Positions 1 through 37,225 of a stretch of 64,000 nucleotides of DNA are shown here, piece after piece. This stretch comes from Bilabrum cf. latius (taxonomy: Eukaryota). The notes beneath the pieces are model-generated. The model saw only the letters and a list, made by a program, of their open reading frames with translations. It made no database searches and was not told the origin of the DNA. The first letter of the stretch is position 1, and each line of letters opens with the position of its first letter. The stretch spans positions 868,001-932,000 of the forward strand of contig OZ237746.1 in the NCBI GenBank assembly GCA_965178125.1. The letters are read 5' to 3'. Made by a program: the position numbers and the translations under genes.

Positions 1-3000
1 TGGACCTCGGACGGGCGGCCCCCGCTGGAGCTGGTGGAGGCAGAGGCCACGAGGGCGCTCTTCGTGCGGTTCCTCAGGGAACAAGAGGTCGAGCTGGCCG
101 AGACGGCGATGAGGAAATCCAGGGCAGCCAGCAGGCGGGCGGCATCCAGGGCGGGCGTGGGCGGGCCAGGGCCCGGATCCGTCTCAATGCCCAGGGCTCC
201 ATCTGCCGCCGCCTCCATGGTCTCGTCGTCGACGGTGAGGGGCGCCACCGCCACCGCAGCCGTGCAGCTGCCCGGGGGCCTGGCGCCGCGCGAGAGGGAC
301 GCACTCGTCAGGCGGCACGTGACCGGTCGGTTCGTGTGCGATCTGGGGGCGGCGCATCGGGGGTCGGGGCGGCGGCAGCGCACGATAGAGCTCAAGAACG
401 TGGGCGGGCGGGCGGCCAGTGTCACCGCCGACACGGGCCGGATGGCAGAGCTGGGCATGCGCATGGACCCCGGTAAGGTGGCCAGGCTGGCACCCGGCGA
501 CAGCGCCAGTGTGACGATTGCGTACCAGGTGCCCCGCCGCGCCAAGCTTGGCGTCCACGAGATCGAGGCCGTGCTGAGCTGCCCGGGGGGGCCCTCGGCC
601 GTGCTCGTGGTGAGGCTGCACGTGACGGAGCCCGCGCTGCAGGTGTACCCCAGGGTGCTGGACTTCGGGTGCATTGCACTGGAGCACGAGCGGATCGAGC
701 CGGTGCTGCTGATCAACCCGACCCCCCTGCCGGTGCAGTGGGAGAGGGGCCAGCTGACGACTCTGTCGCCGGACAAGAAGGAGGAGGGCGAGCTGTTCCA
801 GGTAGACCCCCCCGAGGGCGGCATCGTGCCGGCCAACGGGGCCTCACTCGTCACACTGAGGTTCGCGCCCACGCCCCGGCTGGCGATGAAGCCCCCGCCA
901 AAGGCGAAAAGCAGGGGGGCGCGCACCGCCAGCCGGGGAACACGTTCGGGGGGGGTAAGGGACGCGGCAAGCGGGCGCCACCGCCCTGCCGCTGTGGCGG
1001 GGATCTGCCTCCGGTTGCGACCGGTGGGCGCCCCCGCCGGGGCCGCCTCCCAGATGCCCAAGAAACTGACTCCCCCGAAGGAACTGACCACGGGCGGACA
1101 CGGGCCCACCGGCGGGCCGGGCCCCGGCGCCACCCAGGCTACCCCCCTCGTGACTGCTCCCCTCCTGTGGGCAAGGGGAGCCACCGAGCTGCTGTCCGTG
1201 CAGGTGGACCCCCCGCGCCTGGACCTCGGCCACGTGCTGCCTGCGGGCGGCAGGGTGGTCAAAGGCGAAGGTGGCGAGGGTGGTCCGTCCAGCGGTGCCG
1301 GCGGTCCGCCAGGAAGCGGGGAAGCGGCTTCCTCATCGTCCAGCGATGGATCCGCCCCTTCGCCTCCGGGGCCCTACGACGCACACGCGCTCGTCACACT
1401 GCGGAACCCCTCCGATTCCCGCTGGATGGAGGTGGCGGCGCCGCAGCTCGACGCTCAGCTCCAAGCGGAACAGGCTGTGCTGTACGCCGCGGGGCAGCTG
1501 CTGGCTCGCGGGGTGGACCTGTCCTCTGGTTTGGACGAGGACGACACGGCTGGGCTGGGCGTCGGTATGGGAGGGGGAGGTGGCGGCGGTGGGCTGTTTG
1601 GCGGGATGTTGGGCGGTGGCGTGCTGCGGCTGCCCCCCCACGTGCCCGGGGAGGGCCTTCCGCGGTGGCTGCTGCAGGCAGTGAGCCAGGCGGGGCAGGA
1701 ACAGGGGCAGGAGGCCGGGGGTGCTGGCGGGGGCATGGAGCCTCCTGCCTTCAGAGGAGCTGCTGAATAGGAGGATTAGCAGGTGCAGGAGCTATAGGCG
1801 GGTGACACAGGAAACCGGGGCTAGGGTCCTCCTCCCCGGTGGCCCGCCGGTCCACCGGTGGATCGGTCCCCCCGCGCCGCAAGCTCCGCACTCCGTATGC
1901 TGGGCAAGGCAGTGACCGTGGCCGTGTCGGCGCCCCCCTGCGGAGGGGAGGGGCAGGTGGCCGGGGCGCTTGCAGACAAGCTGTCCGGGCCTGTGCTCAC
2001 CATCGACGGCTGCGTCGAGTGGGCCTTCCGTGGTGGCGCTGGGGAACAATTCAGGAGGCAGCTGCAGGTGCTGCAGGAGGGACTGGTGGACGCCGCCCTG
2101 GAGACGGGAGAGGCCGCGGCCAGGGAACAAGCCAGGGGCAGGGAGGCCGAGGAGGCCGCCGCGGCGGGCAAGGGTGCCAAGGGGAAAGGCAAGGACAAGG
2201 GGAAAGACAAGGGCAAGGGCAAGGGCGGCAAGGCCCCTGCGAACGAGGGTGAGGGCGATGGGTCATCGAGTGACTCTGCGGCCCAGGAAGCGCGCGCCGC
2301 CCGCAGGCTCAAGCTGCTCTCGCTGCCCCCCGCGCTGCCCCCTGCAGCGGTGGCTGCCTGTGTGAGGGCTCGCCTCTTCGCGATGGACTGCAGTCGCGGC
2401 GCCGTGTTTAGCGGAACCTCCACTCGGTACGCCTACATCGGGCCCGAGGCTCCAGCACCAGCAGCAGACTCCCCAGCGCCCATGGAAGACGATGTCCCGC
2501 AGTAGGACGAGGGCAAGGGCAAGGGCAAGGGTGGCAAGTCCAAGGGCAAAGAAGGCAAAGAATCCCCCAGGGCAGGAGGGGACCAGCAGCAGGAGCTGGC
2601 CCGTGCTGCCACGCCTTTGACCACCCCCAGCGGCCCCTTTGGCCACTTCAAGATCGGCCTGGCCCAGTCGCCGGACCACGGGCCCGCCACGCCAGCAGAA
2701 GCTGCCGCCCAGCGCCGCGCCGGTGCCATGATCATCGCGGCTGCGGTGGGCTATCCCGGGCAGCTGGCAGGGATGGGGGGGCCCGGTTGCGCCGTGCATG
2801 TGCCTGGCGGTGCCGCTGGCGGCGCCCTTCGCTTGGTGCTGGATCTTCCAGGGAACAAGGAATTGGAGCCCGAGGGCAGGCCAGGCACCGGGGCACCCTA
2901 GTCAGCAGGCAGCAGCAGCAGCAGCAGCAACGCCGGGAAAGGGGGCAAGGGGAAGGACAAAGGTAAGGGGAAGTCACCCCGGGCCAGCGCCCGAGGGCAA

Positions 3001-6000
3001 GCAGCCGATGGGGACGAGGAAGAGAGCCAATCGGACAAGGCTCCCGCCCTCCCGTTCCGCCGAGAAGTGCCGCTCGACTGGCGATGCGCCTGGGTGCCTG
3101 CCGGCCCCTTGCGGGCCGTCCACGTCGCGATGCCGCGCGGCGCCTTGCGGAACCGAGCCGAGGACGCCCTGGACGAAGCGACTGCGGAGCTGGAAGAGCT
3201 GGAGGCCGAGCTCAGCCAGGCGGAGGCAGAGGCAGCGACTGCGGCAACAACTGGGGCTACGGGGGGTGCCATGGATGCCTCGGCAGGCAGCGCAGCAGCA
3301 GCAGCAGCAGGAGGTGCGGCCGGGGAGGGGCAGGGCGACTCATCCGGAGTCGAAAGTCCAGTCCTGGCATCGCTCAGGGCACGTCTGCAAGAGGCCAAGA
3401 GCAGGCGAGCCGACCTCGAGGCTCTCGCGCACTGGGCCGCAGGGGGGCTGGTGGCGGGTGCGGGGGGGGCCGGGGCGCAGGGAACAGGGCGAGAGGCGGC
3501 AGAGCGTGATGGCGAGGAGCAGCAGCCCGCTGTAGGCGGCGATGGGGAGCCCTCGGCTGCTCCAGTCCTCCCCTCTGTGGTGCTTTAGGCGATCGCATCG
3601 GAGTCGCTCCAGGAAGAGTGGCTGGACGCATGGCGCGTGGCGGTGGAGCGGGAGGCGGCCGCGAGAGGCTCCGTGCCTGCCCCCTTGCCTCCTTCTTCTT
3701 CTGCAATCGGAGCGGGGGAAGGCAAGGAACAGGACCACGGAGAGGACGAGGCGGGGGCCGGGGCATGGGCCGCTTCCGCTTCCTCCCAGCAGCGGTCCCT
3801 GGCCACATCTGCGGGTGCCTCCGCCGTGGTGCACGTGGATGGCGCCGACGACCTGCCCGTGGTGGCGGCAGAGGCCTGGAACTCGATGCCGGCCGCCTCT
3901 CGGTCGGGTCGGCTGTCCGACTCGACCGCACTGCCCACGCACACGAGGTACCCGCTGCCCCCGGGCAAGACGGTGAGGCTGGTCAGGACGGCGGAGCTGC
4001 TCCCGGCCGGGCCAAGGTCTTCCGTCCCGGCCCGCGTGCGGCTACTCAAGGTGCTGGACAGCCTCGCGGATCGCCGGGAGGACGACGACGAGAACGACGA
4101 AGATAGAGAGGTCGAGGCCAAGGCAGCAGACGCAACGGCAGCAGATGCATCGGGGGAGGGCGAGGGCAAGCAGGACGACGAGGAGGATGCAGGGGGCGAA
4201 GCAGGCGCAGGCAGGAGACACTCGCCGCACTCGTCACAACTGGAAGACATCGAGCCGGGCACGTTGCTATCCAGGGAACAAGTGGCCCTGCTGCTTGGGG
4301 AACAAGCAACGGCCTCTAGGGAGGGCGCGCCGCAGGGGCCCGCCCGATGGGTGCTCCCCCCGGGGGGCGAGGCCCGGGCGGTGCTCCGGTTCGAGTCGGC
4401 GGGGGAGGGGTCCTTCTCGGAGCAGCTGCCGCTGGAGGTGCTGGGGCAGCCGCGGGTGGGGACGGGCGGCGCCTCTGTTCTATCGGTGCGCGCGGATGTG
4501 AGCATGCCGCGGATCAGCGGAGACCCCCGTAACGTGTTCATGCGGCACGCGAGGTCCCTGCCCGGCCCGGGGAGGGCCCCCCTCAGGATGCGGTGGGTGC
4601 AGTCCGCGGGCGAGTACGCCTTTGGCCCCTGCGCCCTGGCGGTGGGCGCCCCCACAGAGGGGGGGGAATGGACCCCCGAGGCGGTGGCCAGGGCGAGGGA
4701 GGCAGCCCCCCACCGCTTCGAGACGGTGCGGATCACCAACACCGGATCTTTCCCCGCCCTAGTGAGGGCCTCGCTGGTGGCCAAAGAGGACGGGTACGGT
4801 TGCGACCGGGGGGCCGCTCCGGTGCCCGCGCTCGCCGGGGCGGCGGCCATCGTCCGTGCGGAACCGCCGTTGGTCCCGACCCCACTGCCGCAGGGCTGCG
4901 ATGGCGTGTTCCCTGGGGAACACGGGGCCCGGGTGGTGGTGCCCACGGGTGCCGACGAGGAGGAGAAGCAAGTGGGGAGCATGCTGCCTGCAGTGGCCGT
5001 GCTTGCGGACGGCAGGCCGGGTGCCCAGGCCGATGCTGCGGAGGCACAGGAAGGAGGGGCGGCTGATGGCGCGGCAGGGGGGGGAGGGCCCAGGGCAGAC
5101 GCGGGGCCGACCTGCTTCGTGCTGGACGCCCGGGCTCTCGAGGGCCGCCGGCTGGCACCAGGCGAGACCGCCGAGATCGGGCTGGGCTTCTTCCCGCAGC
5201 ACCCGCGGGTCTACTCCAACGCGCTGTGCCTGTCGGTGGAGGGAAATCCGGAGCCCGTTGTGTTCCCCGTGTCGGGGGAGGGGCACAGGCCCTCCATGCG
5301 GGCACAGGGGCCGTGGCTCGAGCGGGCCGTGCCGCAGGCTGGTGCTGCCGGCGAGGACGACGAGGCTTCTGCTGCTGGTGCTGCCGGTGAGGGCGGCGAG
5401 GGAGTCGCCCGCACGGAGGAGCAGAGGGCCGTGGATGATGCCCTGGCCAGGCGGAACCGCGCGGCGCCGCCGATGCTCCCGGGCCGCGTGCCGGTGCTGG
5501 ACCTCGGCTCCGTGAGGACGGGCCAGGCGAGCGACGACCGGCTCCAGATCCGCAACGACAGCCAGCTGGGTCTCCTGTGGCGGGTGGCGTAGTGGTCGCT
5601 CGCTGCCCTTGCGGAGGGGGTCCGTGTGACCCCACTCGGGGGGGAGCTGGCCCCGGGGAGGGAGGCCGTGGTGTCCGTTCAGTTCGACGGCTCCATGCCC
5701 TGCGAGGTGAGGCAGGCCGTGGTGCTTGAGTACTGCGACGCGGAGGGCGGGTGGGGCGCCGCGGAGCGAGACCGCGCCTCCAGGGAACAAGCGGACGGTG
5801 GTGTGGACCTGCACCTGGGTGGGGATGGTGAGGACGGGGTTGCCTCGAAGGGGGGCGTGCAGGAGGGGCCCTGGGGGCCCGTGCACACGCTCCTGTGGGC
5901 GGCCGAGGAGGCTGGGTCGGCAGGCGGCCCGGGTGAAAATGAAGATGATGGTTCGGGTGCAGGTGGAGGCCTGGCCTCTCTGCCTCCACCCTCCCTCCGA

Positions 6001-7854
6001 GCTCGGCTCAGCCTTGCGTCCAAGGGGCTGGAGACGTACATGGCCACAGGGGACGCGGGGGCGCTGCGGGAGCCCGGTGCGGGAGGCGACGGCGATGGTG
6101 CGGGCGGGGGCAAGGACGATAAAGGGGGCAAAGGCAAGGCGAAGAAGGGAGGGGCTAAGGACAAGGGCAAGGCGAAGGGCAAGGACAAAGGGGGCAAGAA
6201 ATCGCCCCGCCCCGGCACCTCGGGCACCGCGGAGGGAACCGCCGCCGGGGCAGAGGAACCTTCGCTGCCGCTCGTATACCGCGGCCCCAGGCGTATCCGT
6301 GCCCTCCCCTTCTTCGTCGTTGCAGAGGCCTATCCCATCGGGGGAGACGTCGCCGTGGACACCCCCCGGGCGCCTGGAGCTCTGCATTGCGACAGCTCGG
6401 AGGCCGTGCGTGCTGGGGCGCTGCAGGCCGATTTCGGGACTGTGCGGGTGTGCGAGCACGCCGACAGGCAGCTGAGGATGCGGAACCTGGGGAAGCACCC
6501 CCTCGTGTGGGAGGTGCTGCTGCCTCCCCAGGGAACAGCGGCGAGGTGCGTCCGGCTTGGCCCTGCGGCGCTGCGGCCCCGTGGGGAGGCAGACGGCAAG
6601 CAGCAGGAGCAGGAGCAGGCGCAAGGGGCAGAAGGAGGCCGCGTTGCGCTGGTGCAATTTCCCGCGCCCCCCGCCCCTCCTGCGAGCGTGGTGCTGGGAC
6701 CTTCAGGTATCTCTGGAGGTGAAGGGGCGTCTGGGGACGGGGACGAGGGCAAGGGCGGGGGCAAGGGGAAGAGCAAGGGGGGCAAGGACAAGGGCAAGGG
6801 CAAAGGGAAGGGGGGCAAGGGAGGAGCCGCGGAGGGAGACGCAGATGCGGCCGCGGCAGGTGCGGCCAATGTCGTGCCAGAGGACTGGGCCCAGGGAACA
6901 ACGCAGCTGCTCCCTGCCGGAGGGTCGGCCCGCGGGGTGGTGGGTCCCGGGCTGGAGGCGTGCCTCCCCCTGCGGTTCCTGAGCACAGAGGGCCCGGCGG
7001 ACATGGGGGCCCGGCGGGACACGATGGTGGTGCGTCTGCTGGACAGCAGCACCGGCGAACTCCTGTCTGTGGTGCGCGTGGGGCTGTCAGGGCGCGCGTC
7101 CAACGGCGGCCTGGAGCTGCGGCCTCCTCGCGGGGTGCACTTCGGGCCTCAGATGTACGATACGTTCCTGGATCGAGCTCTGGAGGTGCACTCGGAGGGC
7201 GGGCATTGGGGCGGGCCCGTGAGGATCGTGCCGGCGGGGTCGGAGGCGCACGCGGCTGCGGTCCGGGCGGCCCATGCAGCCGCGCGATGGTGCCGGTACA
7301 CGGGGCATGGGGCGGGCGCCAGCGTGGCGATGGCTGCGATCTCCGCGGTGGATGCGGCGCTGGGGCTGGCCGGGGGGGGTGAGAGCGGGGACAAGGGGAA
7401 GAAGGGGGGGGGCAAGGACAAGGGCAAAGGGAAGGACAAAGGGAAGGGCAAAGGTAAAAGTAGTGGTGCCGACGGTGGGGCGGGGGAGGGCGGGGCAGTC
7501 GCTGGGGAGCCCCTGGAGGGGGGCGTGGAGCAGGGTCCCTTCTCGCTGTTCCCTGGGGTGGTGGAGCGCGTGGACTCGGAATCGCACGCGTCGGTCAAGG
7601 TGCGGTACCTGGCCAGGGGCGAGGGCGCGCACCACGGGCAATTCGTCGTCGTGGCGCCGGGGCTGCCGCTGGAGAGCGAGCCGAGGTTCGGTCGCGGGGG
7701 TGCGGCGTCTTCCGGTGCGGGCGGTGGCGTGGCTGGAGAAGGCGAGGCGCTCGGGCCGGACCCGTTCCCTGTAGTGCACGTGAGCGGGGAGTCGTGCGTG
7801 CCGCAGATCCTGTGCGGGCCGCCCCCGGACCTCGGTGACGAGGATGGCATGTGA
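1..7854 (+). CDS. HYDIN: HYDIN-like axonemal central-pair protein (5'-partial, TAG read as sense)
   Basis: ORFs 34-1770, 1858-2505, 2617-2901, 3067-3588, 3637-5592 and 5626-7854 are all in frame +1 and separated only by TAG (1768, 1777, 1795, 1822, 2503, 2899, 3586, 5590); the first TGA is at 7852. Repeated ASH/Ig-like motifs (LKNVG, LDFGCI, ITNTGSFPA, DFGTVRV, VHFGP) and the Hydin-like PRISGDPRNVF...YAFGP segment. Confidence 0.7.
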
Positions 7855-8051
7855 CGTAGGCTTGTGGTGAAGCACGTTTGAACCCTTCAATTACGAACTC
7901 GAACTGATTTTGTCGAATCTGCCTGGCGGTCAACACGGTGTGTGTGATGATCCGATCGGATCGGCTCGCTGTATGTGTTGCTTAGGTGTGGTCCACGAAG
8001 CAAAGCCGAATCAGGCATCCACCATGCTGCCAACTTTGTAATAAGTTCGAC

Positions 8052-9663
8052 ATGAGAGCTTGCATCAGTGGGGCGAGGCGGCTGTAGAAACTGCGCCTAC
8101 TACCCGTGGTTCGATCGAAGTACGGGTGCAGGCGACACCTGAACTCTGTTGCTCCCATTGCTCCCGATTTCCTCGGTGACGTATCAAATCACACTATTGA
8201 TGCGCTGTATGATGTGAGGATTCACCTGGACTCACGAAGAGCCTCAATTGCGACCTCGTTGCTGACGTCATCTCGTGCCTCTTGGCTGTTTGAAACGATG
8301 TAGAACCCTAGCCCATGCGTCGCCCCCCACGACACAGATTCTGTTCCATCCAAGAGGCGCGATGGTTCTGTCGGGAGCCGGGATCAGTACGGCCAGTGGG
8401 ATTCCCGATTACAGGTCTCCCAATCGGCCGGCGTACAAGCCTCTCCAAAACGCCGATTTCTTCCGGAAAGAATCCGTTCGCCGCCGGTACTGGGCCCGCA
8501 GCTCGCTAGGATACCGTAGATTATCCGCCGCCGAGCCGAACGGGGCGCATTTCCTCGTGGCAGCTCTGGAGGCGGCCGGCTGCGTGCGCTCGGTCATCAC
8601 GCAGAACGTTGACCGCCTGCACCAGCGCGCCGGCAGCCGCAACGTGCTCGAGCTGCACGGAACCGTGCACGAGGTCGCTTGCATGGACTGCGGGCTGGTC
8701 CTCTCCCGCCAGCAGCTGCAGCGGCGCATGGAATCGGAGAACGCAGGCTGGCAGCGCGCCTTTGCTCCCTCCCAGGAAGCCCGCCCCGACGGTGACGTGG
8801 AGCTCCCCGAGAGGGCCTACGAGACCTTCGTGATGCCCTCCTGCGGCGGGGCCGTGCCGCATGCGGGAGCGCTGAGGGACCTCAGGGAACACGTCCTCTC
8901 TTCCTCTTCATCTTCGCCCTCGCCCTCCCACGCCATCGTGGCGCAGTCGGTGCTGTCCCCACCCGCGGGGCCCCAGCCGTGCCGGGGGTTCCTGAAACCG
9001 AGCGTGGTGTTCTTCGGCGGGTCCGTGCCCAGGCGTGTGACGAGTGCGGCGTCCGACCTGGTGTCGGACGCGGGGTCCGTTCTGGTGCTGGGCTCCACCC
9101 TGGCCGTGCACTCGTCATACCGGCTGGCCCGGGCCGCGGCCAAAGAGGGCAAGCCGGTGGGGGTGGTGACCTACGGAGAAACCAGAGCCGACGCGCTGGA
9201 AGAGGCGGGCCCCGGCTCTGGGGTGGTCAAAGCGGCGGCCAGCGCCAGCGCGGTGCTGGAGCGGCTGCTGCTCCTGGGCCTGAAGAGGGGGGAGGGGAGG
9301 GCTGCTCGGGCGCTGGAGTGGCTGCGGGGGCACAGCGAAGAGGGGCTACACCCCATCCTGGAGGCGGAAGGGGCCGTGCAGTGGGTGCAGTGCACGAAGG
9401 CGCGCACCGGCTCCTCCTCGCAGTGGCCCGCTGGCGGGGAGGCTGTGCCGCCGGGCGCCGGGCCCGAAGCAGCCGCGTCATCCAGCCGGGCCGCGGCCGC
9501 CTCTATCCAGCACCACGGCCCGGGTGCAGTGCACCCGCCGGCCCCTCCCACCCCCGGCACGGACCCCGCTGTGCTCAGGGGAACGGCCGGCGTGCTCCCG
9601 GATGATGACCCGCCGCCCGTGCCGCACCTCGAGATGCGGCCGCATCTGCCCTGGTGCGTGTGA
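8052..9663 (+). CDS. SIRT4: NAD-dependent sirtuin, SIRT4-like; exon 1 8052-8213, GT-AG intron 8214-8337, exon 2 8338-9663
   Basis: Motifs GAGISTASGIPDYRSP, RRRYWARS, ITQNVDRLH, LELHG, CxxC, ARPDGDVEL and LKPSVVFFG. The Arg-rich N-terminus resembles a mitochondrial transit peptide and contains one TAG. The inferred intron joins the frames. Confidence 0.88.
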
Positions 9664-9825
9664 TGAGATGAGATTATTTCAGGAATTGCAATGTGCGGGA
9701 AGGTGGTATTGACGCTGGTGCCATTCAATGCACGGTATGATTGCACCCAGGCAAATCGCACCAAAGAGTGCGACTGGCCAAGCATGCCAAACCAGACCGA
9801 ATGCATGCCTCGTGTTCGAGCCCCT

Positions 9826-10091: not shown

Positions 10092-10126
<35 letters not shown>

Positions 10127-10794: not shown

Positions 10795-11465
10795 AGTTGA
10801 AGCAGGACTGCGTGATAACGCTCCACTTTTTACACACACTGGCGACTGATGACTGTTAAATACCACTCTGAACACTAAATAGGTTCGTGTAGTGGCTCTC
10901 GGGCCAGTATGCCTGATTTGTTCGCCATGGTGGAGCTGCAGCACGGGTGCAGCGCATGATAGCGATGGCCAGGACCCACTGCAGTCGCCAGAGTCCAGGG
11001 TGCACCCTGCAGCCCACGGGCGAGCAGCAGACCAGACCACTGATAGGACAGTAGGCTGCTGCCAAAGACGCTGCAGCTTGTGAGCGGTGCAAACTTGGGG
11101 CCAGCGGGACTGAGCCGGCCCACGCTCGCTCTCGGCTCCCCTTCACTAGCCTACTGTAAAATGTCTGGGCACCACCGTCCGCAACATTGAGGTATCTGGC
11201 CGAGCTGTAATAGCTATAGCAGAAGAGGCCAAGCCAATGGTACTCATACTGATGCGGATGCAGTGACAGCTCCAACTCGAAGAACTTGCGACCGGCCGTT
11301 TGCGACCAAGCCGGCTGCTGCGCTGCACACCAAAAAGCTCCTCGTGGATCGGCAAGCGCGGCCCTAGTCTGGTCGTGTCGTTATCGTTGCCGCTAGAGAA
11401 ATATTGATTCCTTGTTTGATGATCTTGCGCGCTTGAGATTATTGGAAGACTACCCCAACACCAAG

Positions 11466-14400: not shown

Positions 14401-15266
14401 TCGAGCAGGAGCAGGGGCATGGGCATGGGCATGGGCATGGACATGGACATGGGCGGGGGCGGGGAGGTGGCCGGGTTCAGGATGGTGGGCGTGGGCTCGT
14501 GCAAGGCGCGCCAGTGAGCAGGGCACTGGCCCTCGACAGGAGCGGAGACTCGTCTCTGGACTGGAGCAACCCCCTCCTGGCTATAGTGAGCTGGGTGTCG
14601 GGGGGCAGCCAGAGATCGGACGCGAGTTTTGGCTCCGAGTTGGCCCCTGTGGCGTGGGTCGGTGGTGCGGCAGCAGTCCCGGTGGAGTCGTCGTCGTTGT
14701 CGGCGAGCGGCAGCACCCGCACTGGGACCCTGGGAGCGTCGATCGCGAGCGGTTCGGATCAAGGCTTGGGTCGTGATTCAGCGTGCGCTCTGTCAGTGGT
14801 GCAGTCATAGGGTGGCACCACTGGGCCAAGAACAGCGGGGGCGTGCAGGGCAAGGCACGAGATCGAGCTGGCGGGGGTGCATGAAAGTGCCTCTTCGTGC
14901 TGCTCGCCCCTGTCGTCCTTATCCCCTGGGAGATCGCAGGATATTGCTGGCACGACTGCGGCGCGAGCGACAGGCGGTGCAGGTGAGGGCACCTGCGCTG
15001 GGCGCCGAGGGCCCCAACTGGGGTCCTCCACCATCAACCCGCTGCTGGGGGCAAGGTCTGAGGCGGCTTCCGACGCAGTGCACGAGCTGGAGGCAGAGGT
15101 GACTGCAAGTGCGGGCGGGAGGGGCCGGCGCGGTGCAATTCCCAGCGGAGGTTTATCCTTCGCTGCAGACGATGCGTTGGAGCAGAAGTAGATCGAACAG
15201 GGACAGGGACAGTAGGGACGAGGTGAATAGCGGGGCACGAAGGGTGGGGCAGGACAGGTTGTATGA
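11466..15266 (+). CDS. ELWxxDG(T)-repeat beta-propeller ectodomain, Ser/Thr/Pro stalk and multi-TM C-terminal region
   Basis: Motifs GDELWMSDG, GRLYFAA, GKLFFAA, DIAPG, GTELWVYD and DIIPGPSSSYP. The frame stays open across TAGs at 11766, 14808, 15189, 15213 and 15228 to TGA 15264. The start codon is uncertain. Confidence 0.75.
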
Positions 15267-22719: not shown

Positions 22720-23453
22720 CGTCTTTGAAGACGCAGGCTTCTGCGCAAAGTATGCGTGCCTAGACCGCACCACATACTTTTTCTTGCAGTATTGTTCATT
22801 CCACCTGCTCCTTGGGCTCCGACAAGACCTCCCCTCCGTCAAACCGCGAGCCCCACCCCGAGCGACAAGCAATTGCTCCACTCTGGCGGCGCAGCCGAAC
22901 CAGGTCTCGAGCTTGGCCCCGCCCACACGGCCGTTCCAGGAGTTATCCGCAATCTTGCTTCTAATATGTCTAAATCAACGTCCAGGCGCCCCAAAGTTGC
23001 CTCGACCTGCCCTGCGGCCGAGATACGCGACGGATGCGGTCGCAAGGCACCTCCTCACGCAGTGGGTGCGGCAGGTACGCGCCCTTCATAGCACCATCGC
23101 GCACTCAAGGGCCACCCACTCTAGCTCAATCGACACCTGTGCGCTGAATTCGCGGTGAGTGGGCCACTGGGCTGCATTGCGGGGCCGGTAGTTGCCGGCG
23201 AGGCCCGAGGCAGCGGCGGTGCGACCACAGGCGGCAGAGGTGCGCCCAGACAAAGAGGAAGCGATGCATGGGATGCAGTGCGCTGTCACAGGGTTTACAT
23301 CCGATCCGGATAGTGTGAGAACACAATTAAGATTTGGCCCTTTGAGCTCTCAAATCGCACGCGGCTAGTGAAATACATAACTTCTCCCTCATCTGCCTGT
23401 CCATTCGGAGCTGCCCACACACCCCACCTCAATCCCGCGTGCCACACCCCACC

Positions 23454-26400
23454 TCAGGTAGGGTCGAACAAATCCCGCGTGCCTCCGTCCTCGTCCACCA
23501 TCGTCAGCCGCCCCACACCCTCCTCCAGGTAGAGAGCTAGCACACCGCGCTGCAGCCCGAGCAATCCGAAACCATGCTTCCACACAGAATTGCCGTGCTT
23601 GTCCAGAATGTGAAGCTTCTTACTAGTGGACATGACAGCGAGCCTGAAGGGACCTTCATGGTCCTCGTGCAGATCCCAGGTGTCAGAGGCCCACAGGATC
23701 TCAAGCTCGCGCCCGTCGCTGATCGCCAACTTGCGAAGCACCACGTTGCCGTCCGACTGAAGATGCAGCGTGACCTTTTCGTTTTCACCGACGGCAGCCT
23801 CCATCAGGTCGTACTCGTGCAGACTGTAACCGATCGGAAGAACGTTCTTGGGAACCGAGTCAGGCCGCTGGGGACACACCGGCATGTCCTCGTCGCACGG
23901 TTGTGCCAAAGGCAGGTTGTCGTAGTCCTCGAAATCTTCCTGCCAGTTGCCCTCTTCGTCGCCGTCCGTATCCCAGTCCCAAGTGTCCGTGGTCCAGATG
24001 GATGCCCCGCTCTTCCGGTACAGGACCACGTTGCCATCGTCTTGCATCCTTAGTTCGCCGATCGCCCCGACTCGATCGGTCGCAGCGTGCCACTTCTCAT
24101 CCCCCCCTCGTTCTACGATCACTAGCCTCCCGCTGCCCTCGACCAAAAAGAAGCAGTGGCCGCCGCTGTCCGTCGCTGTGTTCCAAAGGGGTTTTCTGCC
24201 ATGTCCCTCACGCTCCTGGGCATACAACACGAGACTGCGGAGTACACGATATACGCACAAAAGATGAGCCGATGGAGGTGGTCGAAGCAACAACGCTGAT
24301 CTATAGTCTACGCCCAGTGCATACCAACTTATGTCACAAGTGGAATGTGCACGCAAAGATTATAACGGGGGAATACCATCATTCGATCTTTCATGGTAAG
24401 CAGTACGTCAGTGCAGGGCGTCATCCGATTCATTGATCTCACTTGCAGTCTCCTTGCATCGTCAGGTATCCGTCGTAGCCATGTCCATGTGACCGTAGGC
24501 TCCAAGGTGCCTCCAGGATCTGACCCGGCCGCATGGACCACCAGATGTCGCCATCTTCTGCTTCTTGGCACTTGTACCTGTCACTGGCTGTGCAGTGCAA
24601 GAACGAGGCGTCTCGGACGGCGCCATCATTCCACACGCCGCGGCTCTTCCACTTGCCCTGCTTCTTGCCATACGTGCCAGAGGACCACACGACCGAACCG
24701 GGCTTCTGATAGAGCACTAGGTTTCCATCCGGCTGCGAAAAGAAAAATGGAGGTACAGGCAAATATCAAGGCTAGTCTAGTACAAGGAATCAAGGTTCTG
24801 GATGGAAAGTGAGTTATGTCGTTTCTGCTTACCTGCTGCTTCAGCTCCAGCTCCGAAGGATCGTCACCTTCTCGCAAGGCCTTGGAGCCCATGATCATAA
24901 AATGCGTGTCACCGCTGTCATCAACCAAGAAAAGGTCGCCCTCATCGGTAAACACGAAAGCACACGCCTCCCCCTTGTCCTCGGTCTTGGAAGACCACAA
25001 GGGTGGATCGAAGTCCGGCTTGCCAGCGGGGCGGTATGCGACCTGGACCCCGCACTTCACGACGGCGAGCCGCATCGACCCGCCCCCGTCCGCACTGGTA
25101 ATCAGCGAAGACTGGCTCAGCAAGTACTGGCCCGGCTGCATCGAAGCCCCGCCGAGCCACGCACCGTCCAGCTAAACGCACTTCGAGAGGTCATCGGCGG
25201 TGCACTTGAGGTCGGGAGATGGCCGCAGGGATTTTGCAGGCACACCGTTGAAATGCAGATAGCTCCTGGACCTGTCGCCGTCCTTTCGGTTGCCAGGTGT
25301 ATACTGCTCCGCACCATGTCTGAACCCGTTCAGCAACGTGTAAGTGGTGGTCCCATCATCTCCAGCATCCGTCCAGTCATTCACTGCCCCACCGTTAGCC
25401 GTCGGGAACCTGAACATGCTGTCTACCCGCTCCGCTGGCAAGTCCATCTTGGCCAGGCGATCAGCGGCATCAAGTAGTGCCATCGTTACCTGCTTTGCTT
25501 GCCCCGCTGGCACGTCCATCGTGGCCAGGCGAGCAGCAGCATCCTCGAGCAGTGCTTTCTGGTGCTTCAGCTTGGTCATCTCTGTCTGGCCCGAAGTCTG
25601 AAACACGTACCGCATCAGGTCAGCGCCATTCATGCCCTCCTCTTGGGCCGCTTGTGCCATAGCCAGCCGATACTGATGCTCTGCAAACTGCAGGATATCG
25701 TCGGCTGCAGAGGCGGCCTCCCTGAGCTCATGCTGACCCTGGCTGTACACTGCATCCTCGAGCGCTTGGGTGGCCGCCCTGGCCTTGTCGAGCTGCTTCT
25801 TGGCCTGGTGTGCAAGCGGGCTCCTCTCCAGTTTGCCGAGCATGAAATCGCTGCGGCCCCCTCCCTTTTCCATGGATGCGGCCACGTCTGTGAGGCCCGA
25901 GTCGCCCGCCCGTTCAAGCGCCTCCTCCCACGTGAGGGTGCCGCCAAACTGAGCTGGAATTCCATCACGTCGGACCAGGGCCGCGGCGGCGTCAAGCGAA
26001 TCCTTGTTGATCTTGACCTGCTCGTATGACATACCAAAGGACTGCTTGAGCACCATGTCGGGGTTCTTGCCCTACTCCCTCGCTACCGTGGCCACCTCAT
26101 CAAGGAAATGTGCATAGCGTCGTTCAGACTCAAGGTGATAGATGGGAAACGTCCATCCGTCCACCATGCCCATGGCAACATTCGGGTCCTGCGACCGGAG
26201 CAGCGGCTAAATGTCCTTCTCGAAGCCCTTTATCGCCTTACTGAGCCTTTTCGAGGCCGCGGGATCAAGACCCGCCGCCTTACAGGCATCACCAAGGTTG
26301 CCCACGGCGATGTTGCCGTTGAGGACTTCGATGCCGTGCTGCCGCCCAAGGACTCCGTATGACACGTACATTTTGTCAATCCTGCTTTGCTGAACGAGGG

Positions 26401-29400
26401 GGTTGGAACGCACCCCATCGTTCCAGACCTTCTTGGCATCCGCTTTGAGCTAAGATAGCTTCTTGGGAGACAAGTCGTCTGGCCAGTCGTCGAAGGTAGT
26501 CAGGAAGCTGTCGAACGCCTTCTGCTTCTCAGCCAGATCCTTGGACAAGCCATACGTGGCAGCACCTGCAATGTTTGTGGATATAACTGCATCATCCATC
26601 ATCCCTGTCAGCTCGTGCATACCCATGCTCTCCAGGATTGCCATTGGGTCGCCAGCACCCGTAGAGTCGGCGGCATCAGCCATGGCGTGCCCCAGACGTC
26701 TCTGGGCGATCACTTCTTCACCTCTCAGCTTCGCGATTGCCGAGTGGACGAGCTCGTCATATTTCTTCCCGGCTTCTTCGACAAAATCTTTGAGGTCAGG
26801 GCTGACCTTGGTTCTTCCGGAAAACGGGTTCACGCGCCAATTCTTCTCCATCAGCTCGATCTGATCCCTGATCGCACGGAGGCTATCGACGTGCTGCTGC
26901 ACCACCTTGCCGCCCAACGCATCAGGAAGCTTCGCGTTGGACGGATAAAGCTGATGCCCACGCACGGAGATCCCCTCCATGAGTTGTCGCAGCTCTGGCG
27001 AAGCCACAGCCTGCTGCGCCTGCACAGATAGTTTCCAGTTGGCAACGCTCTGCTCCAGGCTCTCCACCGTGACACCATCGCCGTAAATATGCTGTACGAT
27101 GAGGTCACCATTCGCTGCGATGGCTTTGTCAGACTCTGCTGCTGCTCGGGTCGCGGCTAGCACCTCGTCGGCGTACACGATATCTCTCACTCGCATGGCC
27201 TACTGCTTGGCCTGGGCAACGTGCATTTGGCGAGTGATCTTGCCTGCGTCCATATCTTGCGCGACCTTGATGATCCTCTGCCTCGTCATGGGAGAAAGCT
27301 ATGTCCACGCGCCACCACTGAGCTGCTGCTCCACCATGCGAGCTGTCTGACCGTCCCGAAAATTATCTCGGAGTACGTAAACAAGATCATTCACGGGCTG
27401 TAAGGCCTCGTTTTCGGCATGTTTCAGTGCTGCCTGTGCCACCTCACGGTCAGCATCGTTGGTGGCTCTCCGAAGTGCCTCCTTAGCCTCCTTAACCGAG
27501 GATGGGTCGCTGATCTCCTTGAGCGCCGTCTCCGCTGCCTCAATCTCCGACCTGATGCGTTCCTTCTTGGCCCTTGTCAGGATGTGCACGAGATCGTTAG
27601 AACCCTTCAGCTCCAACGATGCCTGCAGCTTGGCCAGCTCCTGCTGCCTCTTCGCAAACTCTGCAAGCTTGGACTGGGCAGCGCCCTCGGGCAGCGTCCT
27701 CCTCCAGATCGACTCAAAGTCTTCCAGCCCAAGCTCCCGCCAAAGTACATCACGGGCATCCAAAACGTTAGCATAATTCGACGCGATGCGTGCTTGCTGT
27801 TCGCAGGACTCTGACAGCCTCCTGCTGACCACATCTTGCCAGAATGCCGAGTCAACACTTTGCTGCTTGGCGAGGGCCCTATCGGTGATCTCAGCGGCGC
27901 TCTCCCGAATCTTGCGCTCAGTTCTGACCCAGGCACTGTCAGTCTTAGGAACAGACACGCCACCCCATTCGATATCAGCTTGCCTTTCCAACACTTCCTC
28001 GGCTGTCGCACCGGCCCTGCGCAATTCGGTCAAGTCGTCTGCTGCTTGCTTTGCAATGGCCTCGATCTCCACCATGGCCTCCATTCGGGCAATCTCGCTC
28101 GCGTCGGCGTCGATGCCGCGCAGCTGCAGATTGGTCTTGATCTCATCCTCTGCGAGCTCACGATACTGGGCCAGGTGTTCATCTACCTTGGCTTTGTAAG
28201 GTGGGACGACATCACTGATGAAGTCGTCGGAGACCTTGTCCACTCCGAACGCATTGGTGAAATCGATTGCGTCCGGGTTGGGGTAGTTTTTCAGTAATTC
28301 GTCGGAAGTTGTTGCCCGCGCTCCCTTGACGAGCCTGCGCTAGACTTGTTCCCGACCCTCCTTGCTCATCCCCTTCAGAGCGAGGGCTGCGTCCTCCTTC
28401 AGCTAGGGCATGAGATTCTCCATGACCTTCCCATCCACTTCTCTGCGAACACTCATCACCTTCTGCGCTGTGGCGCTGTCCGGAATCCCTAAAGAATCGG
28501 ATATGGGAACGCTTGGACCTCCCTTCGCAGCCTTCAGCGCAGCGGAAGCTTGCTCCTAGGAGGAAAAGTGGGCTTCCTTGAGCTCCTTCTTGAGCCTGGC
28601 AATGCTGCTTTTCTGCAGGTCCTTGGCATCTGACCTCAAAATCTTGACCAGCTGCTCTTGCACGCCGCCAAGGTCTAGTTCCTGGTCTCCGATGCGCTTG
28701 GCGCATTTTTCGACAGCATCAGCAGCAGCCGCGTCCGCCCGGACCAGCTTACGCACCAGAGCATCACTTTCTACCTCTCCGAGAAGCTACTCAGGACTCA
28801 GCCCACGCTAGAATTCACTGTCCATGCGCACCACTCCGTGTGGCTGGATTGCAGCAGGCATGCTATCGAACTCAAGATCGGCACGCACCTCGACGTCGTC
28901 TGCTCGTATCGGTGCAGCTGGCACGTTGAGTTCGGTCGCGATGGCTTCATCCAGCTCGTCAAGGCTTGGCATGCGGTTGGCCTTGCCTTGAGCTGTCGCT
29001 GCAGCCGAGTCGGCAATATTGGCGTTGAAATCCTTCAAAGCCTACCGGTCCGAACCGAATGCCTTGGCCCGGAGTGACTTGAGGTCACCGGCATTCAGAC
29101 CAGGCAGCTCTGCTGGTGACACTCCCAGCTGCCGGGCCAGGGTGCCTTCCAGGATGCCACGCTGGATCTCGCCATCGACTTCCGCAATCAGCTTGCGGGC
29201 ACCATCAAGGTTCTCTGCCAGCTGCAGTCGCATGTCGAGCGCCGCTGCCAGGTTGGTGTGGTACCTCATGACCTCGTCGACAGCGGGCACGCCGTTCATG
29301 GCACGGGTGATGTCGGACGCCACCCCTCCGCTCAACTCGGCCGCATTCGCAATGGCCAGCGTTAGCTCGGATGTCGCAAGGTCGTGCTCGAGGAGCACAA

Positions 29401-32400
29401 GGTGGCCTAGCTCGTTGTCCAGGGCCGATTCCGGCGCATCGGCAAGCTTCTCGAGCCTCACGTAGGTCTCCTAAACTTTGTTGGAAGCCGCCTGCACTGC
29501 TGGATCGGCCGCAATCTGCATGGCGATTGGCCCATCGGTTGTCAGCAGCCCCTCGTCGATGTACTTGCCAATGTCGCCCAGGTCACCACGAAGTGACTTG
29601 CTGGCGCTGAGAGCGCCAAGCAGAGCCTCGTTAGCTTGCAGATCCGCTTGCAGTCGCCTGGCGTTCGTGCCGAAATGGAGCGCCATGAAGGTATCGGCTG
29701 CCTCCAGTCCGCCTTCCTCCGCAGCTTGCATGCTTGCATGGATGTCAAGGAGCGACTTGGCCTGATTGACCTTGTTGCTGGCTTCAAGTGCCTCTGAGGC
29801 CGCCAGCTGAGACGGTAGGGGTCCCGTGCTGTCAATCGACTTCACTGCTGCCTCAAACTTGGATTTGGCAGCCTCGCTGACCTGGTCGTGCTTCTTGAGC
29901 GCTGCGTGTGCCCTTCTCATGGCCGCCTCCACGTCGGATCCCAGCTGTCCGGCATCCTGCAACATCCACTCGGGCAAGTCCTTCAGCGTGCCGTCGCCCC
30001 GGAGCAGCGCGTCGTTCTTTCCGATGGCTGCCTGCACTCCAACGATCGGCTCCCCGGCCCACAGATCTCTCTTAATACCGTCGATCACCTTGGTCGATAG
30101 CAAATCATCGGACAGATCGTACACCTTGAACCAGTCATCGGGGCCTTTGAAGTGCGCCCTGGCTGCGTGGGAGGCTCTGGCAGCCGCATCGGCGGCTCCC
30201 TGCCTTGCCTGCGCAAGGGCCTCCTTTGTGACTGGGCTTCCGGCCAGCATCGTGGCGACGGCAGCCCCGTCGGCCCCTGATCGTTCGGCAGCGGTGGCGG
30301 CAGCAATAGCAGAGTCGATCGAGTGCAAGTCATCGGTAGCAGTAACGAAGGCATCCAGTGACCTGAGGACCTCTTCTGTTTCCTCTGTTCCCTGCTTTAA
30401 CCCGCCGCGGTACATTTCCCACTAGGTCGCCATCTCACGGCTGGCATCGAGGTGCCTGAGCGATTCGAGCAGCTCCTCCGTGGCCATGCGTGGGTTCTCG
30501 TAGAGCGCCTTGAAGGCACCCATGATGTTGTCCCCGTCTCGGATCACGGAATCAAGGACTCCGGCGGTCCGTGCGTCGACGGACATGGCACGCAAGGCGG
30601 TGCCCTTGGCCCGCATCGTCTTGACCTTGGCCGTGACGTGGCTGGGCAGCGTGTTGAAGTTCTAGATGCAGATTGCGTGAACGGCCTCATCCGGACCCAT
30701 CCCCTGCTTGACGAGGCGTCGAGTTCCGGCTTCTACCAGCTCCTCGATCGCGTCGGCCTCGGCCTCCCATTGCAGGCTGGCAAATACGAAGGCTGCATGC
30801 TGCCTGCCCTCGTCAGTCAGCTGTCCCAAGCCTTCGACCAGCTCCTTGCTGCGCATCACCTTGGATAGTTCGTCCAATTTGGCTTGCCGGCGGCCATACG
30901 CCACCATGGCGTCTTCGAAGTCCATGAGACGCAAGTCGGACGGGTCAACAGGCAACTCAAATGTTACCCTGCTGACCGCCTGCACGTCCGCCACCATGCC
31001 GGCAAAGGCCTTGTCCTAAAGCATTTGGGACGTCTCCTCTCGCACCACGGTCTGGCTGCGGCGTAGCTTGGCAGTCACATCACTTAAGCTGTCCTTGGAC
31101 CCGAAGCCAGGCTTTCCGCCGAAGGACCCGGAGTCCACGCGCTGGTACGATGGCCCGTCCACGATCTTCATCGACCCGTACCTTCGCAGCTCCATCGCCT
31201 CACCGAGGTCTGACCCAGCGATGCTGCCCCGAATATCAGCCATCAACGCGTCCTCAGGTCCCATGAACGACCGCTTGGTAGCATCAGATAGTAACTCGGA
31301 TGCTTCTTCCGAGATTGCCGCCAGATCAAGATTCCCGGTCTTTCCCAGCTTCGCACCCTGACCAAAGTGGAGTTTGCGCCACACCCCCGGTGCCTGCAGG
31401 AAGCCGTGCCGCGGCCTCCGCTTCCTCCGGCAGACTACGTTCTTCTTACACTCCAACACCCTGAGCTTCTACCGTTTGTAGCTGTCGACCTCTACCCTGG
31501 TTGATATATGGTCTATGTTCAGCTTCTTCGCACCGTCGCCCCCGTTCCTAAAGATGGGGTCCCTGGCAAGTCGTGACTCCATGAAGGACTGCCGTCTCGC
31601 ATTCATGTTCACTTCTGCCCTCACCCGCTTGAGGGGATCAACTACCTGCTTCTGCAACCGCTTCCGGCCCACCTAGCCGACGTAGTTGTCGAAGGCGGAA
31701 TCGTAGATGTGCTTCATGGCCTCGTGCTGCTCGACCGGAGTGGCTGTCTTGCCGTGCTTGACGAGCCATTTCTTGTACTCTGAGGCGGCCTCCTTGTTCA
31801 TCTTCTTGGAGATCTGAACCGCCTGTACCTCGATACCATCAAGGGCAGCTGCGGCCAGGAGCCTCTTACTAGTCGTCTTGGCCACCACATGCTCAGCCGT
31901 TTTGCCCAAGGCGGCATTTTTCGTGTAAAACAGCAGATTCCTGATGCCCTAGAAGCACTCTCCCAGCGTCATGGCAAAGTTCTTGACGGACTTCCACGCG
32001 AACTGGAAGGGGAACTTGACCGCACGCCATACGGTAAGCAACGGGTGTCTCACGGCGTACTTGAGCCCCTTCCAAGCCAGCTTGGCGCCTGCAACCACAA
32101 GGTGCTTCGCCCCCTTAGCGGCTGCAGCAAGTCCAGTCGTGATAGCACGCTTGGTGAACGCCCTGCCGATAGCTTTGCCTCCCTGTTTGTACGTCTACTT
32201 CGACAGCGCCTTCACGGTCATCTTGAGAGCGTTCTTCGCTGCCTGCTTGGCTGCCGCCTTTGCTGTAGCCACAGCGACTGCACCGCCCGCCTTTGCCGCT
32301 ATCTTAAGGCCGGCACTCGCACCGCCTGTGAGCATACCTAGCGCAATGTCACCGGGTAGTTCGACAGCGATCTGCGTCCAGAATCTCCCCCACTGAAACA

Positions 32401-34861
32401 TGGGGTCGTCCAGTCCGTTCCGAGGGTCGACGCGGGCCAGCTGCCCACCGTACGCTTCCTGCTTGTCAAGTATCCCCTTGGGATAATCTCTTGCCTCGTA
32501 GTCCCACGAGTTGGTCTCGAATAGGGGAGTTCCATGCATCCGTAATACGATGTTTCCGTCGTACTGCGTGCCAAACACCAGCTTGTTGAACTCGTACGGA
32601 GGCCGCATACCGATCCTGACCTGCTCCGGTCCAGTCCACGCCGCGCCTCCATACTTCGCAGTAGAATAGATAATCGTTGTTGGCGAGAGCGACAACAGCG
32701 TTGTGAACCAATCCACATCGTCGGGCTCCACCAGCGTTGACATGAGCGTCTCGGCGTCGGCGTAGTACGTGACCCGGCCAGTTCCATCCACGATCTCGAG
32801 TTCACCGATGGACGAAAAAATGAACGAGTACGGCCCCTCCTGCTTGACGGGAGTCTCGTCTTCCTTTCCCCAGCCGTCCTGGGTTTTAGAGGCAAACAGG
32901 ACCGCCCGACCCTGCACATATAGGACGAGGTTGCCATCCGCCTGCATTTTCAGCGAGATGACACCGTTCGTCACCTGTTCATTCGCGGTTGACGTAATAG
33001 CCTCACCGGGAACCATGTCTCCGCTACCCTCGGGAGGGGCAACGCAGTTGCCGAGGGTCATAGCGCTGCAGAAGGGGCGAGTCGGGTCGTCCATGCGCGC
33101 TCTATGGATCCGCAGCAGGGAGCCGTCATGGGCATCGTTGGGCGCGCTTGGTGCGGACACGGTGGTCCACACTACATCTGGACTTGTACGCGAGATGACC
33201 TCAATAGCCTCGGGGGAGGCGCAGTAGTCCAAAGGATGGAAGGAATCCAGCCGCAGGACGGCCATGTCCACCATGTGGAGGGGGTTGGCCCACTCGTCAT
33301 CGTCCTTCTTGCGGACGGCAACAAGGGCGGCGCACGTGATCGGACCCGCATCGCCCGTGGTCTGCTTCCACACCGTGGTCTTGCCTCCCTCTCCCAGGAC
33401 CATGAGGTCACCGGGGGTGGTGAGCACCAGAGAGTAGGGTCCCTTCGATTTACCATGCGTGCCGGAGGCCCACACGACCTTGAAGGGCTCGGCTTCGAGC
33501 CGTTCTTGAATCGCGGGAGAATCCATGCAGTCGCAGTGAGCGATGGGGTCGGCGCACGAGAGGTACTCTCTCTTGTCTTCGTCATCGAATTTCCCGCTCG
33601 CGTCCTTCTCGCACTGCGATCCGCGATACTCGAGGACCAGGTTGCCGTCTTCCTGCATGACAAGTTTGGCCTCGGACGCAATGATCTCCCGGTTGCCGAT
33701 GTTCTTGAAATGTCGGTTAACGACCTCGTACGTACTCTTCGAAGTGAGGGCCCTGCCTTGCGGCAGCTGCTCCCCGGGTCTGAGAAATTGCGCGCCATCG
33801 GCAACCACCTTGCACTTTTCAAGCGAGCGCTCGCCGCACCACGTCTCTGCCTCTTCCTAGCCCTAAAGCTCGGGCCTCCAGGAAGGAGCGTCCAGGAACC
33901 ACCCGGAGTACTCCCAACGGAGCTTGCGCAGGCGCTGCCAGCCGTCCAGATTGTCGTCTAGCCCAGGGTCGTCCTCCGGCCAGCCGTTGTCCTTCAGGAC
34001 CGCCAGAAGGTCGGTGTTGATGGCCGTCCTTGATTGTGCCACAAGGAGATCCGGGTCGTCCTTTCGCCGAACGACGAGGTTGCCGCCCTCGGTGATCTCG
34101 AGCTGCAGCAGGTCCTTGGCGCGGGAGATTTCGCCTTCCGATGTGAGCCCCATGGACGTCCGACTGATCCACTTGACGGCCGTATGATCATCTTTTTCGC
34201 TTGCCTCGTTCAGCGAATCGGCGTTAATTTCTGTGGAGTTCAGGCCAACTCGCACCAAAGCCAGGTCACCACCCGATGTGAAGACGAACAAATCACGCTT
34301 GTGCTCTCCCTGGGGCTCATCATGGGCGACAAGCTCGTTGCTAGTCTACCCTGGCAGGCGAGAAGCAGCACGGGCCCGCCAGATTATGTTAAATCCCTGG
34401 CGGTCCTTCGTGGACTCGGCCAGAAAGAGCCCTTCCTCCTTGTTGCACAGCTGAATCATGAAATCCTGCACTATCCTCTCCAAGCACTGCCCCGGCCTCA
34501 GCATCTGCGAAAAATTATAGAAATGAGACAAACATGGTCGCTATGGGTACTATGTCTGACGCGGTAGGTGGGCCTAGTGTGTTCCCATTGTACCTGACAG
34601 CCTCACCTGACCAGGCTGCAAGGTCGACCCATCGAGTGCAATGGCACAGTCACCCAAAGAATCAATGAAACATGATGAGGGAATTTCTTGCGACTCCAAG
34701 TGGGCAGCATTCCGTCGCCGAGAAGTCCGTAAACCAGCCGAGTTTACTCTCAGCAGCCGGCTTTCTTGCCTTCCGAGGCGCTGAGCACTGCCACGAAATT
34801 GCGTAGCCAACGAAGCTCCAAGAATAAATGAAGTAAATATCGCTAATACAGCGAATCGCAT
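23454..34861 (-). CDS. ~3,665-aa secreted protein with N- and C-terminal bulb-type (B-) lectin domains and a long helical core; exons 34861-34607, 34504-24833, 24732-24443, 24234-23454
   Basis: Signal peptide MRFAVLAIFTSFILGASLA. Repeated QxDGNLVLY motifs (MQEDGNLVL, MQADGNLVLY, QPDGNLVLY, MQDDGNVVLY, LQSDGNVVL). About 15 track ORFs lie in one frame separated only by TAG. Three GT-AG introns keep the frame, and the third rebuilds MQGDCNLVLY. Confidence 0.8.
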
Positions 34862-34964
34862 CGGCGGTACGAAATCTTGAAGTGCTGAAAAATAAGAGAA
34901 GAGCAGCTGGGCTGGGCGCGCCCTGAAATTTCTTATTTCGGTATCAACTCGTTACAATTTGAAT

Positions 34965-37220: not shown

Positions 37221-37225
37221 TTGAG

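Follow-up and report, generated by a model that had tools for sequence, protein, structure and literature searches.

Probable reading of UAG, but not UAA or UGA, as a sense codon for glutamine in GC-rich nuclear DNA with an integrated virophage-like element

When a nuclear genetic code reassigns UAA or UAG, the other codon is nearly always reassigned along with it. The subject of this report is a stretch of DNA in which the two appear to be uncoupled: 64,000 nucleotides of contig OZ237746.1 (assembly GCA_965178125.1, Bilabrum cf. latius, positions 868,001 to 932,000), called the window below, which holds a giant lectin-like gene, a HYDIN/CFAP65-like frame and an AT-rich integrated element of the virophage/polinton type, each with TAG inside its reading frames. 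The coupled change is represented by the UAR=Gln codes (NCBI table 6), which occur in many ciliates, in hexamitin diplomonads and in others, and for which tRNA-Gln(CUA) is known (PMC5304391). The few UAG-only cases comprise a rhizarian, Iotanema, Scotinosphaera, Protocruzia and some phyllopharyngean ciliates (PMC11687900). UAG has become leucine in the rhizarian exLh and serine in Scotinosphaera, and glutamine in Protocruzia tuzeti and in two phyllopharyngean lineages (PMC11687900). In the fornicate Iotanema spirale it encodes glutamine while UAA is a stop (Panek et al. 2017, PMC5304391). On the viral side, a virophage survey infers possible host recoding, from an ochre-suppressor tRNA only (PMC6905037).

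The account of the window that we favour, and consider probable, is that of a GC-rich flagellate nuclear code in which UAG is a sense codon, most likely for glutamine, and UAA and UGA are stops, the arrangement of NCBI table 15. The locus would then provide a further case bearing on the uncoupling of UAG from UAA, with genomic DNA, spliced transcripts, a GC-rich host and TGA as the main stop. For this genome, gene calling under the standard code would truncate or split many proteins.

The lectin-like gene, on the minus strand, carries much of the argument (coordinates of all features are given in Table 1). A search of sequencing runs with positions 25000-34900 matched eight runs from four studies, dated 2025 and none of them recorded as RNA, and contigs of X1, of X5 and X6 (both from study P2) and of X7 (study P3) were aligned to 15001-35000. 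The contigs of X5, X6 and X7 skip introns of the gene, and from these spliced joints the three runs are treated as transcript assemblies. The introns have CT..AC ends on the plus strand, which are GT..AG on the strand of the gene. None of the joints occurs in X1, where one contig is collinear with the window over 23240-35000. The spliced coding sequence (CDS) begins with an ATG at 34861 and stops with a TGA at 23456-23454, and the contigs run on for another 118-132 nt past that stop.

All 23 in-frame TAGs of the spliced CDS sit in the 9672-base exon. X5 record 14 spans the whole exon with no other letters and no gaps; X6 records cover it up to 33750 and from 34072, and X7 records up to 34484, all 23 TAGs included, in both cases with zero differences. 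Since the spliced contigs match the DNA over the exon, all 23 TAGs are retained in the mRNA, in a gene that the standard code would end after 167 codons. In the coding frame TAG, TAA and TGA occur 23, 0 and 1 times, the one TGA being the terminal codon, against 23, 9 and 75 times in one wrong frame and 9, 22 and 105 times in the other; the coding frame thus shows no avoidance of TAG but is kept free of TAA and TGA. Three further TAGs (X126, X134, X137), clustered in the unspliced frame, fall within the 102-nt intron. A preliminary description of the window, made from the letters alone, had proposed a 9.67-kb exon interrupted by TAG only, introns of the GT-AG type and the reassignment of TAG alone. 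The RNA-like contigs delimit that exon exactly, all four joints found in the window (4/4) are GT-AG, and the reassignment is supported by the 23 TAGs of the spliced CDS together with the lack of in-frame TAA and TGA reported below. The description had also named RNA freed of the TAGs by tiny introns or editing as its own refutation; the outcome was negative, all 23 TAGs being kept in contigs of three runs that belong to two studies. We regard it as close to certain that the host reads TAG as sense.

The lectin-like protein has a hydrophobic N-terminus resembling a signal peptide and bulb-lectin-like repeats at both ends. Pfam gives a weak B_lectin match in the giant frame and matched no family in the central region; the translated two 3' exons contain further bulb-lectin-like repeats. 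The gene is the best covered in the RNA-like runs. A fourth study contributed run X8 (organism D), which holds 42% of the sampled words of 25000-34900 and may come from a related strain or else from a sample of mixed content.

Does the pattern extend beyond a single gene? With the standard code, no stop-to-stop frame of the window is longer than 1013 codons, and 24 frames reach at least 300. With TAG as sense, 44 frames reach that length, headed by 24626-34951 on the minus strand (3441 codons with 26 TAGs, unspliced) and 1-7854 on the plus strand (2617 codons, 8 TAGs). Taking TAA as sense leaves the maximum unchanged at 1013 codons; taking TGA as sense gives a maximum of 1597, TGA being the commonest of the three stop triplets in the window. 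No in-frame TAA or TGA precedes the terminal codon in the roughly 12,000 codons examined; host-like frames free of internal TAA or TGA have 3666, 2618 and 1235 codons, and the element frames 3550. Fifteen frames terminate with TGA (11/15) or TAA (4/15), ends that are mostly set by construction, the exceptions with independent confirmation of the stop being the lectin-like gene, through RNA, and the protein-primed family B DNA polymerase (pPolB) of the integrated element, through the ends of its homologues. The polymerase ends at its TGA where the homologues end, with median overhangs of 0 and 6.5 residues, so that both of the independently checkable gene ends are TGA. That TAA and TGA remain terminators is supported by these observations.

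The HYDIN/CFAP65-like frame was given in the preliminary description as 7.85 kb long with eight TAGs and no TAA or TGA, which was confirmed, the frame ending in TGA. Its TAGs start at 1768, 1777, 1795, 1822, 2503, 2899, 3586 and 5590. The TAG, TAA and TGA counts are 8, 0 and 1 in frame, compared with 5, 1 and 29 and 4, 6 and 16 out of frame. The TAG at 5590-5592 lies inside ASH and HYDIN-type Ig matches (5470-5760), which extend over both sides of it whichever of the 20 residues is put in its place. Four of the eight TAGs (1768-1824) lie close together in the 90 nt of the frame that have the lowest GC; the frame was scanned for GTRAG...YGCAG motifs, and this cluster may be intronic.

The integrated element shows the same pattern on a very different base composition. 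Its seven genes (3550 codons, 34-43% GC) use TAG 84 times, CAA 81 times and CAG 18 times, and have TAA and TGA only as terminal codons. TAG thus makes up 84 of 183 putative glutamine codons (46%) and is the most used of the three. In pPolB, TAA occurs 19 and 52 times in the two wrong frames and never in frame. Because TAA is absent in frame from an AT-rich element in which it is common out of frame, it is not a glutamine codon, and the UAR=Gln code of table 6 does not describe the element genes, with their 84 in-frame TAGs and not one in-frame TAA. Among 29 IMG/VR loci with pPolB relatives (30-44% identity, 21-57% GC), none shows TAG in frame over the part that aligns, and one is interrupted by TAA and TGA. 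TAG is therefore not a trait of the polymerase family, and its share of the glutamine codons here, set against 0 of 29 relatives, argues that the element has long evolved inside this code.

Which amino acid does TAG encode? The pPolB was aligned with 120 homologues, and a Codetta-like log-likelihood was computed on columns with at least 90 homologue residues. Over 21 TAG columns glutamine scores +8.5 bits, compared with -27.2 for lysine, -28.7 for glutamate, -44.9 for serine and -69.5 for leucine. As a control, 49 of 51 codons with at least five columns were assigned their standard meaning by the method, and the control codon CAA gave glutamine at +3.9 bits over 10 columns. The homologues most often have glutamine at TAG columns 452 (52/107), 629 (97/119), 838 (104/120), 935 (71/120) and 955 (116/120). 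The major capsid protein (MCP) of the element served as an independent check: each of the 20 residues was put in turn at its TAGs and the protein scored against Pfam. Glutamine was best in both domains (2/2), with 93.4 against 92.2 for lysine and threonine in PF22031 and 80.4 against 78.7 for methionine in PF21915. Glutamine is thus the strongly favoured meaning of TAG, a reading that draws its support from the integrated element only, through pPolB and MCP. The assignment UAG=Gln made in the preliminary description accordingly stands for the virophage-like element, while the host-gene columns were uninformative.

Several observations weigh against this account. Other residues dominate further pPolB TAG columns, namely aspartate at 781 (95/120), glutamate at 789 (92/120), arginine at 998 (97/120), proline at 1153 (87/120) and lysine at 1181 (92/119), and some columns are dominated by asparagine. 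The lead of glutamine in the MCP test is only about 4 bits summed. No host gene resolves the residue at TAG, whether in lectin-like or in HYDIN-like columns; the column of the TAG at 5590 favours valine and isoleucine in the ASH match and threonine, lysine and glutamine in PF22544, all within about 2 bits. A search of 1.84 billion representatives with residues 1800-2999 of the lectin-like protein (unspliced frame) returned one homologue, P0243 (284 aa, 43-45% identity), which has glutamate (in a gapped stretch), lysine and lysine opposite the three TAGs that it covers; no relatives of P0243 were found in metagenome_contigs. The label 'RNA?' attached to runs X5-X7 is a guess, and X5 is also labelled 'probably DNA'. 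Finally, the window holds no tRNA gene by ARAGORN, and hence no tRNA-Gln(CUA), no Rfam match and no eRF1 gene.

How else might the in-frame TAGs be explained? Were TAG a plain stop, the frames would have to be pseudogenes or products of missed introns, edited sites or assembly errors. The three TAGs of the unspliced lectin frame that are truly intronic fit this idea, as does the cluster at 1768-1824, where the HYDIN frame is poorest in GC. We give it next to no credence, however, in view of the 23 TAGs in spliced contigs of three runs that are identical to the DNA, the lack of any TAA or TGA over 3665 codons, the conserved domains and the 41-47% homologue identity that continue across TAGs, and the agreement of the DNA-like run X1 with the window in the lectin-like gene. 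A subtler possibility is an ambiguous TAG, translated within genes yet terminating some of them by context. Context-dependent codes of this kind are those of Condylostoma and Blastocrithidia. No gene end in the window rules against it, the frames being delimited by TAA or TGA by construction, and frame 11253-15266 has three TAGs within its last 22 codons, its standard open reading frame (ORF) ending at the TAG at 14808-14810. Efficient termination at TAG would, however, truncate the products of genes in which it supplies 46% of the putative glutamine codons of the element or stands 23 times in one expressed host CDS, and both checkable ends, those of the lectin-like gene and pPolB, use TGA. 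An ambiguous TAG is therefore unlikely, and full reassignment is very likely.

The remaining alternative concerns the residue rather than the sense reading: TAG might stand for another polar amino acid, such as lysine or glutamate, in the host and for glutamine in the element only, for example by way of a giant-virus suppressor tRNA. The residues of P0243, the sole homologue of a host protein, would agree with this, and the host domain column is uninformative. On the other hand, host and element share a single cytosolic translation system, no tRNA gene lies in the element or in the rest of the window, and lysine and glutamate trail glutamine by about 36 bits in pPolB; lysine or glutamate opposite glutamine is an ordinary substitution at 43% identity. 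Taken together, these points make a separate host meaning very improbable, and a single UAG codon for glutamine remains the preferred reading for host and element alike.

How such a code would work can be sketched after the proposals made for Iotanema (PMC5304391). A tRNA-Gln(CUA), one mutation away from tRNA-Gln(CUG), would pair with UAG and not with UAA, and an eRF1 with weakened competition or recognition at UAG would leave the codon to it (PMC5304391). C-to-T transitions might from then on convert CAG into TAG, and the new codons would build up above all in the AT-rich mobile element. Because one cytosolic translation system serves both, TAG in the host would be expected to denote the same residue as TAG in the element.

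The element itself is bounded by terminal inverted repeats (TIRs) with arms at 44195-44334 and 63569-63708, 140 nt long and 100% complementary. Its termini are built from subrepeats of about 166 nt, four of them on the left side (43687-44281), and the perfect arms reach into the pPolB and integrase genes at their 3' ends. A double jelly-roll MCP and a minor capsid protein occur together with a PolB and an rve integrase flanked by TIRs, as expected of a mavirus-type virophage or polinton-like integrated element. The pPolB homologues are 41-47% identical. Among the element frames Pfam matched no protease family that could represent the maturation cysteine protease, and no relatives of the MCP were found in viral_contigs or metagenome_contigs. 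Thirteen of the 14 TAGs in the MCP frame lie in 55721-57070. The C-terminus of the MCP is replaced by DNA of the 1310-bp repeat, so that this copy of the element is probably defective. The repeat copies are 81-94% identical, with about 58-59% GC (families D1, D2, D3 and D5).

Table 1. Features of the 64,000-nucleotide window (positions within the window; blank cells where nothing is given)
Feature	Position	Strand	Remarks
HYDIN/CFAP65-like frame	1-7854	+	5'-open; ends TGA; Pfam PF22544, PF24507, PF15780 (Ig and ASH types)
Sir2 domain (sirtuin)	8266-9663		Pfam
GT..AG intron, 115 nt	15956-16070	+ (gene)	joint in X5 only
FkbM methyltransferase-domain frame	19345-22719	+	ends TAA; Pfam
Lectin-like gene, CDS 3665 codons	23454-34861	-	exons 34607-34861, 24833-34504, 24443-24732, 23454-24234
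GT..AG intron, 208 nt	24235-24442	-	joints in 3/3 RNA-like runs (X5, X6, X7)
GT..AG intron, 100 nt	24733-24832	-	joints in 3/3 RNA-like runs (X5, X6, X7)
Exon of lectin-like gene, 9672 bases	24833-34504	-	23 in-frame TAG, no TAA or TGA
GT..AG intron, 102 nt	34505-34606	-	joints in X5, X6
RVT_1 reverse-transcriptase frame	40082-43786	-	GC-rich; 4 TAG; Pfam
AT-rich integrated virophage/polinton-like element, about 20 kb	43687-63708		TIRs; GC 0.33-0.40
Protein-primed family B DNA polymerase (pPolB)	44310-48089	-	26 TAG; ends TGA; PF03175, E 1.1e-21
GIY-YIG nuclease	50505-51260	-	5 in-frame TAG; PF01541, E 3.6e-7
GC-rich tandem repeat, 1310-bp unit, about 3 copies	51797-55756		inside element, abutting truncated MCP
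Sputnik-type major capsid protein (MCP)	55526-57070	-	14 TAG in frame; PF21915, E 3.6e-21; PF22031, E 4.8e-25
Minor capsid (penton) protein	57131-58258	-	13 TAG; PF21507, E 1.2e-8
Putative packaging ATPase	60484-61464	-	8 TAG; ends TAA; weak AAA and Pox_A32 matches below Pfam cut-offs
rve integrase with chromodomain	62560-63639	+	5 TAG; PF00385 25.2 (cut-off 25.1); PF00665 30.6, below cut-off 32.6

Three composition zones can be told apart in the window: 1-8 kb (70-73% GC), 8-38 kb (about 57-65%), and 44-52 kb together with 56-64 kb (33-40%). Next to the left terminal repeat of the AT-rich element, and directly abutting it at about 43.69 kb, stands an element with a reverse transcriptase (RT), and the first TAG of the RT frame falls within that AT-rich repeat. 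No second copy of the RT element was found in the window when 140 frames were compared all against all, the sole paralogy being the 1310-bp tandem repeat. The preliminary description had counted two retrotransposons using TAG; one of them stands, as this RT element; for frame 34963-36927 no family match was obtained, RT included, and the AT-rich element is not a retrotransposon but of the virophage/polinton type. The same description had drawn attention to TAG in the glutamine-rich string EQK*IEQGQGQ*GRGE*, which is located at 15180-15232 in frame 11253-15266. The stretch is not a clean CAG repeat with TAG substitutions, and as evidence for glutamine this context is anecdotal only. In the FkbM frame, the TAG at 21388-21390 bridges two standard ORFs and is crossed by X5 record 13 and X7 record 21 without a joint; taken alone, this gene is not decisive evidence for TAG as sense.

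Repeats mark several other places. Many unrelated contigs pile up in all four runs at a GAC/GAG-rich stretch near 17117-17145 (region 17117-17345). Just downstream of the lectin-like gene, a 543-base X1 contig at 22737-23269 has a depth of 643, compared with about 10-13 nearby, and so represents a multi-copy repeat. At 37192-37466, in a region without a recognisable gene, a 30-nt tandem repeat of about nine units follows (TCTAGAC)n-like short repeats.

Protein affinities point weakly towards stramenopiles, judging from sequence matches. The nearest named matches of the window are stramenopile proteins of low identity; the C-terminal part of the HYDIN-like frame has a single match, in Heterosigma akashiwo, with 30% identity over 19% of the query, and the closest match of the sirtuin is 48% identical (P0123). 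Two candidate hosts were tried and rejected, Cafeteria, whose protein is just 45% identical to the sirtuin, and Halocafeteria, with a reported genome GC of 46.8% (preprint 10.64898/2026.06.25.734631).

What, then, is new? The type of code is already known, and the novelty may lie in the lineage and in the deep adaptation of a virophage-like element to the code. No published report of a UAG-only glutamine code in a stramenopile or other flagellate, or in a virophage, was found in a search that had supplementary files outside its scope. It is conceivable, as a tentative proposal, that UAG-only glutamine arose independently here in a lineage without a described variant code, with the virophage and an implied giant virus co-adapted to it, to the point that TAG became the glutamine codon most used by the element. 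If true, this would be the first view of a eukaryotic DNA-virus/virophage system tracking a code change of its host, and it would bear on the idea of code change as a viral barrier.

Compared with the systems introduced at the outset, the locus resembles in its code Iotanema, in which UAG alone is reassigned to glutamine and the predicted decoder is a tRNA-Gln(CUA) derived from tRNA-Gln(CUG) (PMC5304391). In the taxa of that paper, UAA is the dominant stop, whereas here TGA ends 11 of 15 frames (PMC5304391). The window differs further in its low-identity, stramenopile-leaning protein matches and in being genomic DNA with an integrated virophage-like element. The UAG-only ciliates share both codon and amino acid, with UAA not used for glutamine (PMC11687900). 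The window has 57-73% GC over 1-38 kb and carries an RT element and a 20-kb viral element. DNA so GC-rich and element-bearing would be unlike typical ciliate macronuclear DNA. With exLh and Scotinosphaera the locus shares the uncoupling of UAG from UAA, but the leucine and serine used there score -69.5 and -44.9 bits in pPolB, compared with +8.5 for glutamine. The UAR=Gln codes are alike in turning a stop into glutamine and differ in that TAA never occurs in frame here and ends 4 of 15 frames.

The viral comparisons run along a different line. TAG-recoded bacteriophages (code 15) are likewise mobile or viral genomes in which TAG is glutamine, while here the host genes use TAG too. The architecture of the element resembles that of the endogenous mavirus-like elements (EMALEs) of Cafeteria burkhardae, low-GC virophages with TIRs that sit in the high-GC genome of a flagellate (Hackl et al. 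2021, PMC8547959). EMALEs have pPolB, rve integrase, ATPase, penton and MCP genes in common with it (PMC8547959). The text of that paper contains no mention of 'genetic code' (PMC8547959), whereas the genes of the present element carry 84 in-frame TAGs.

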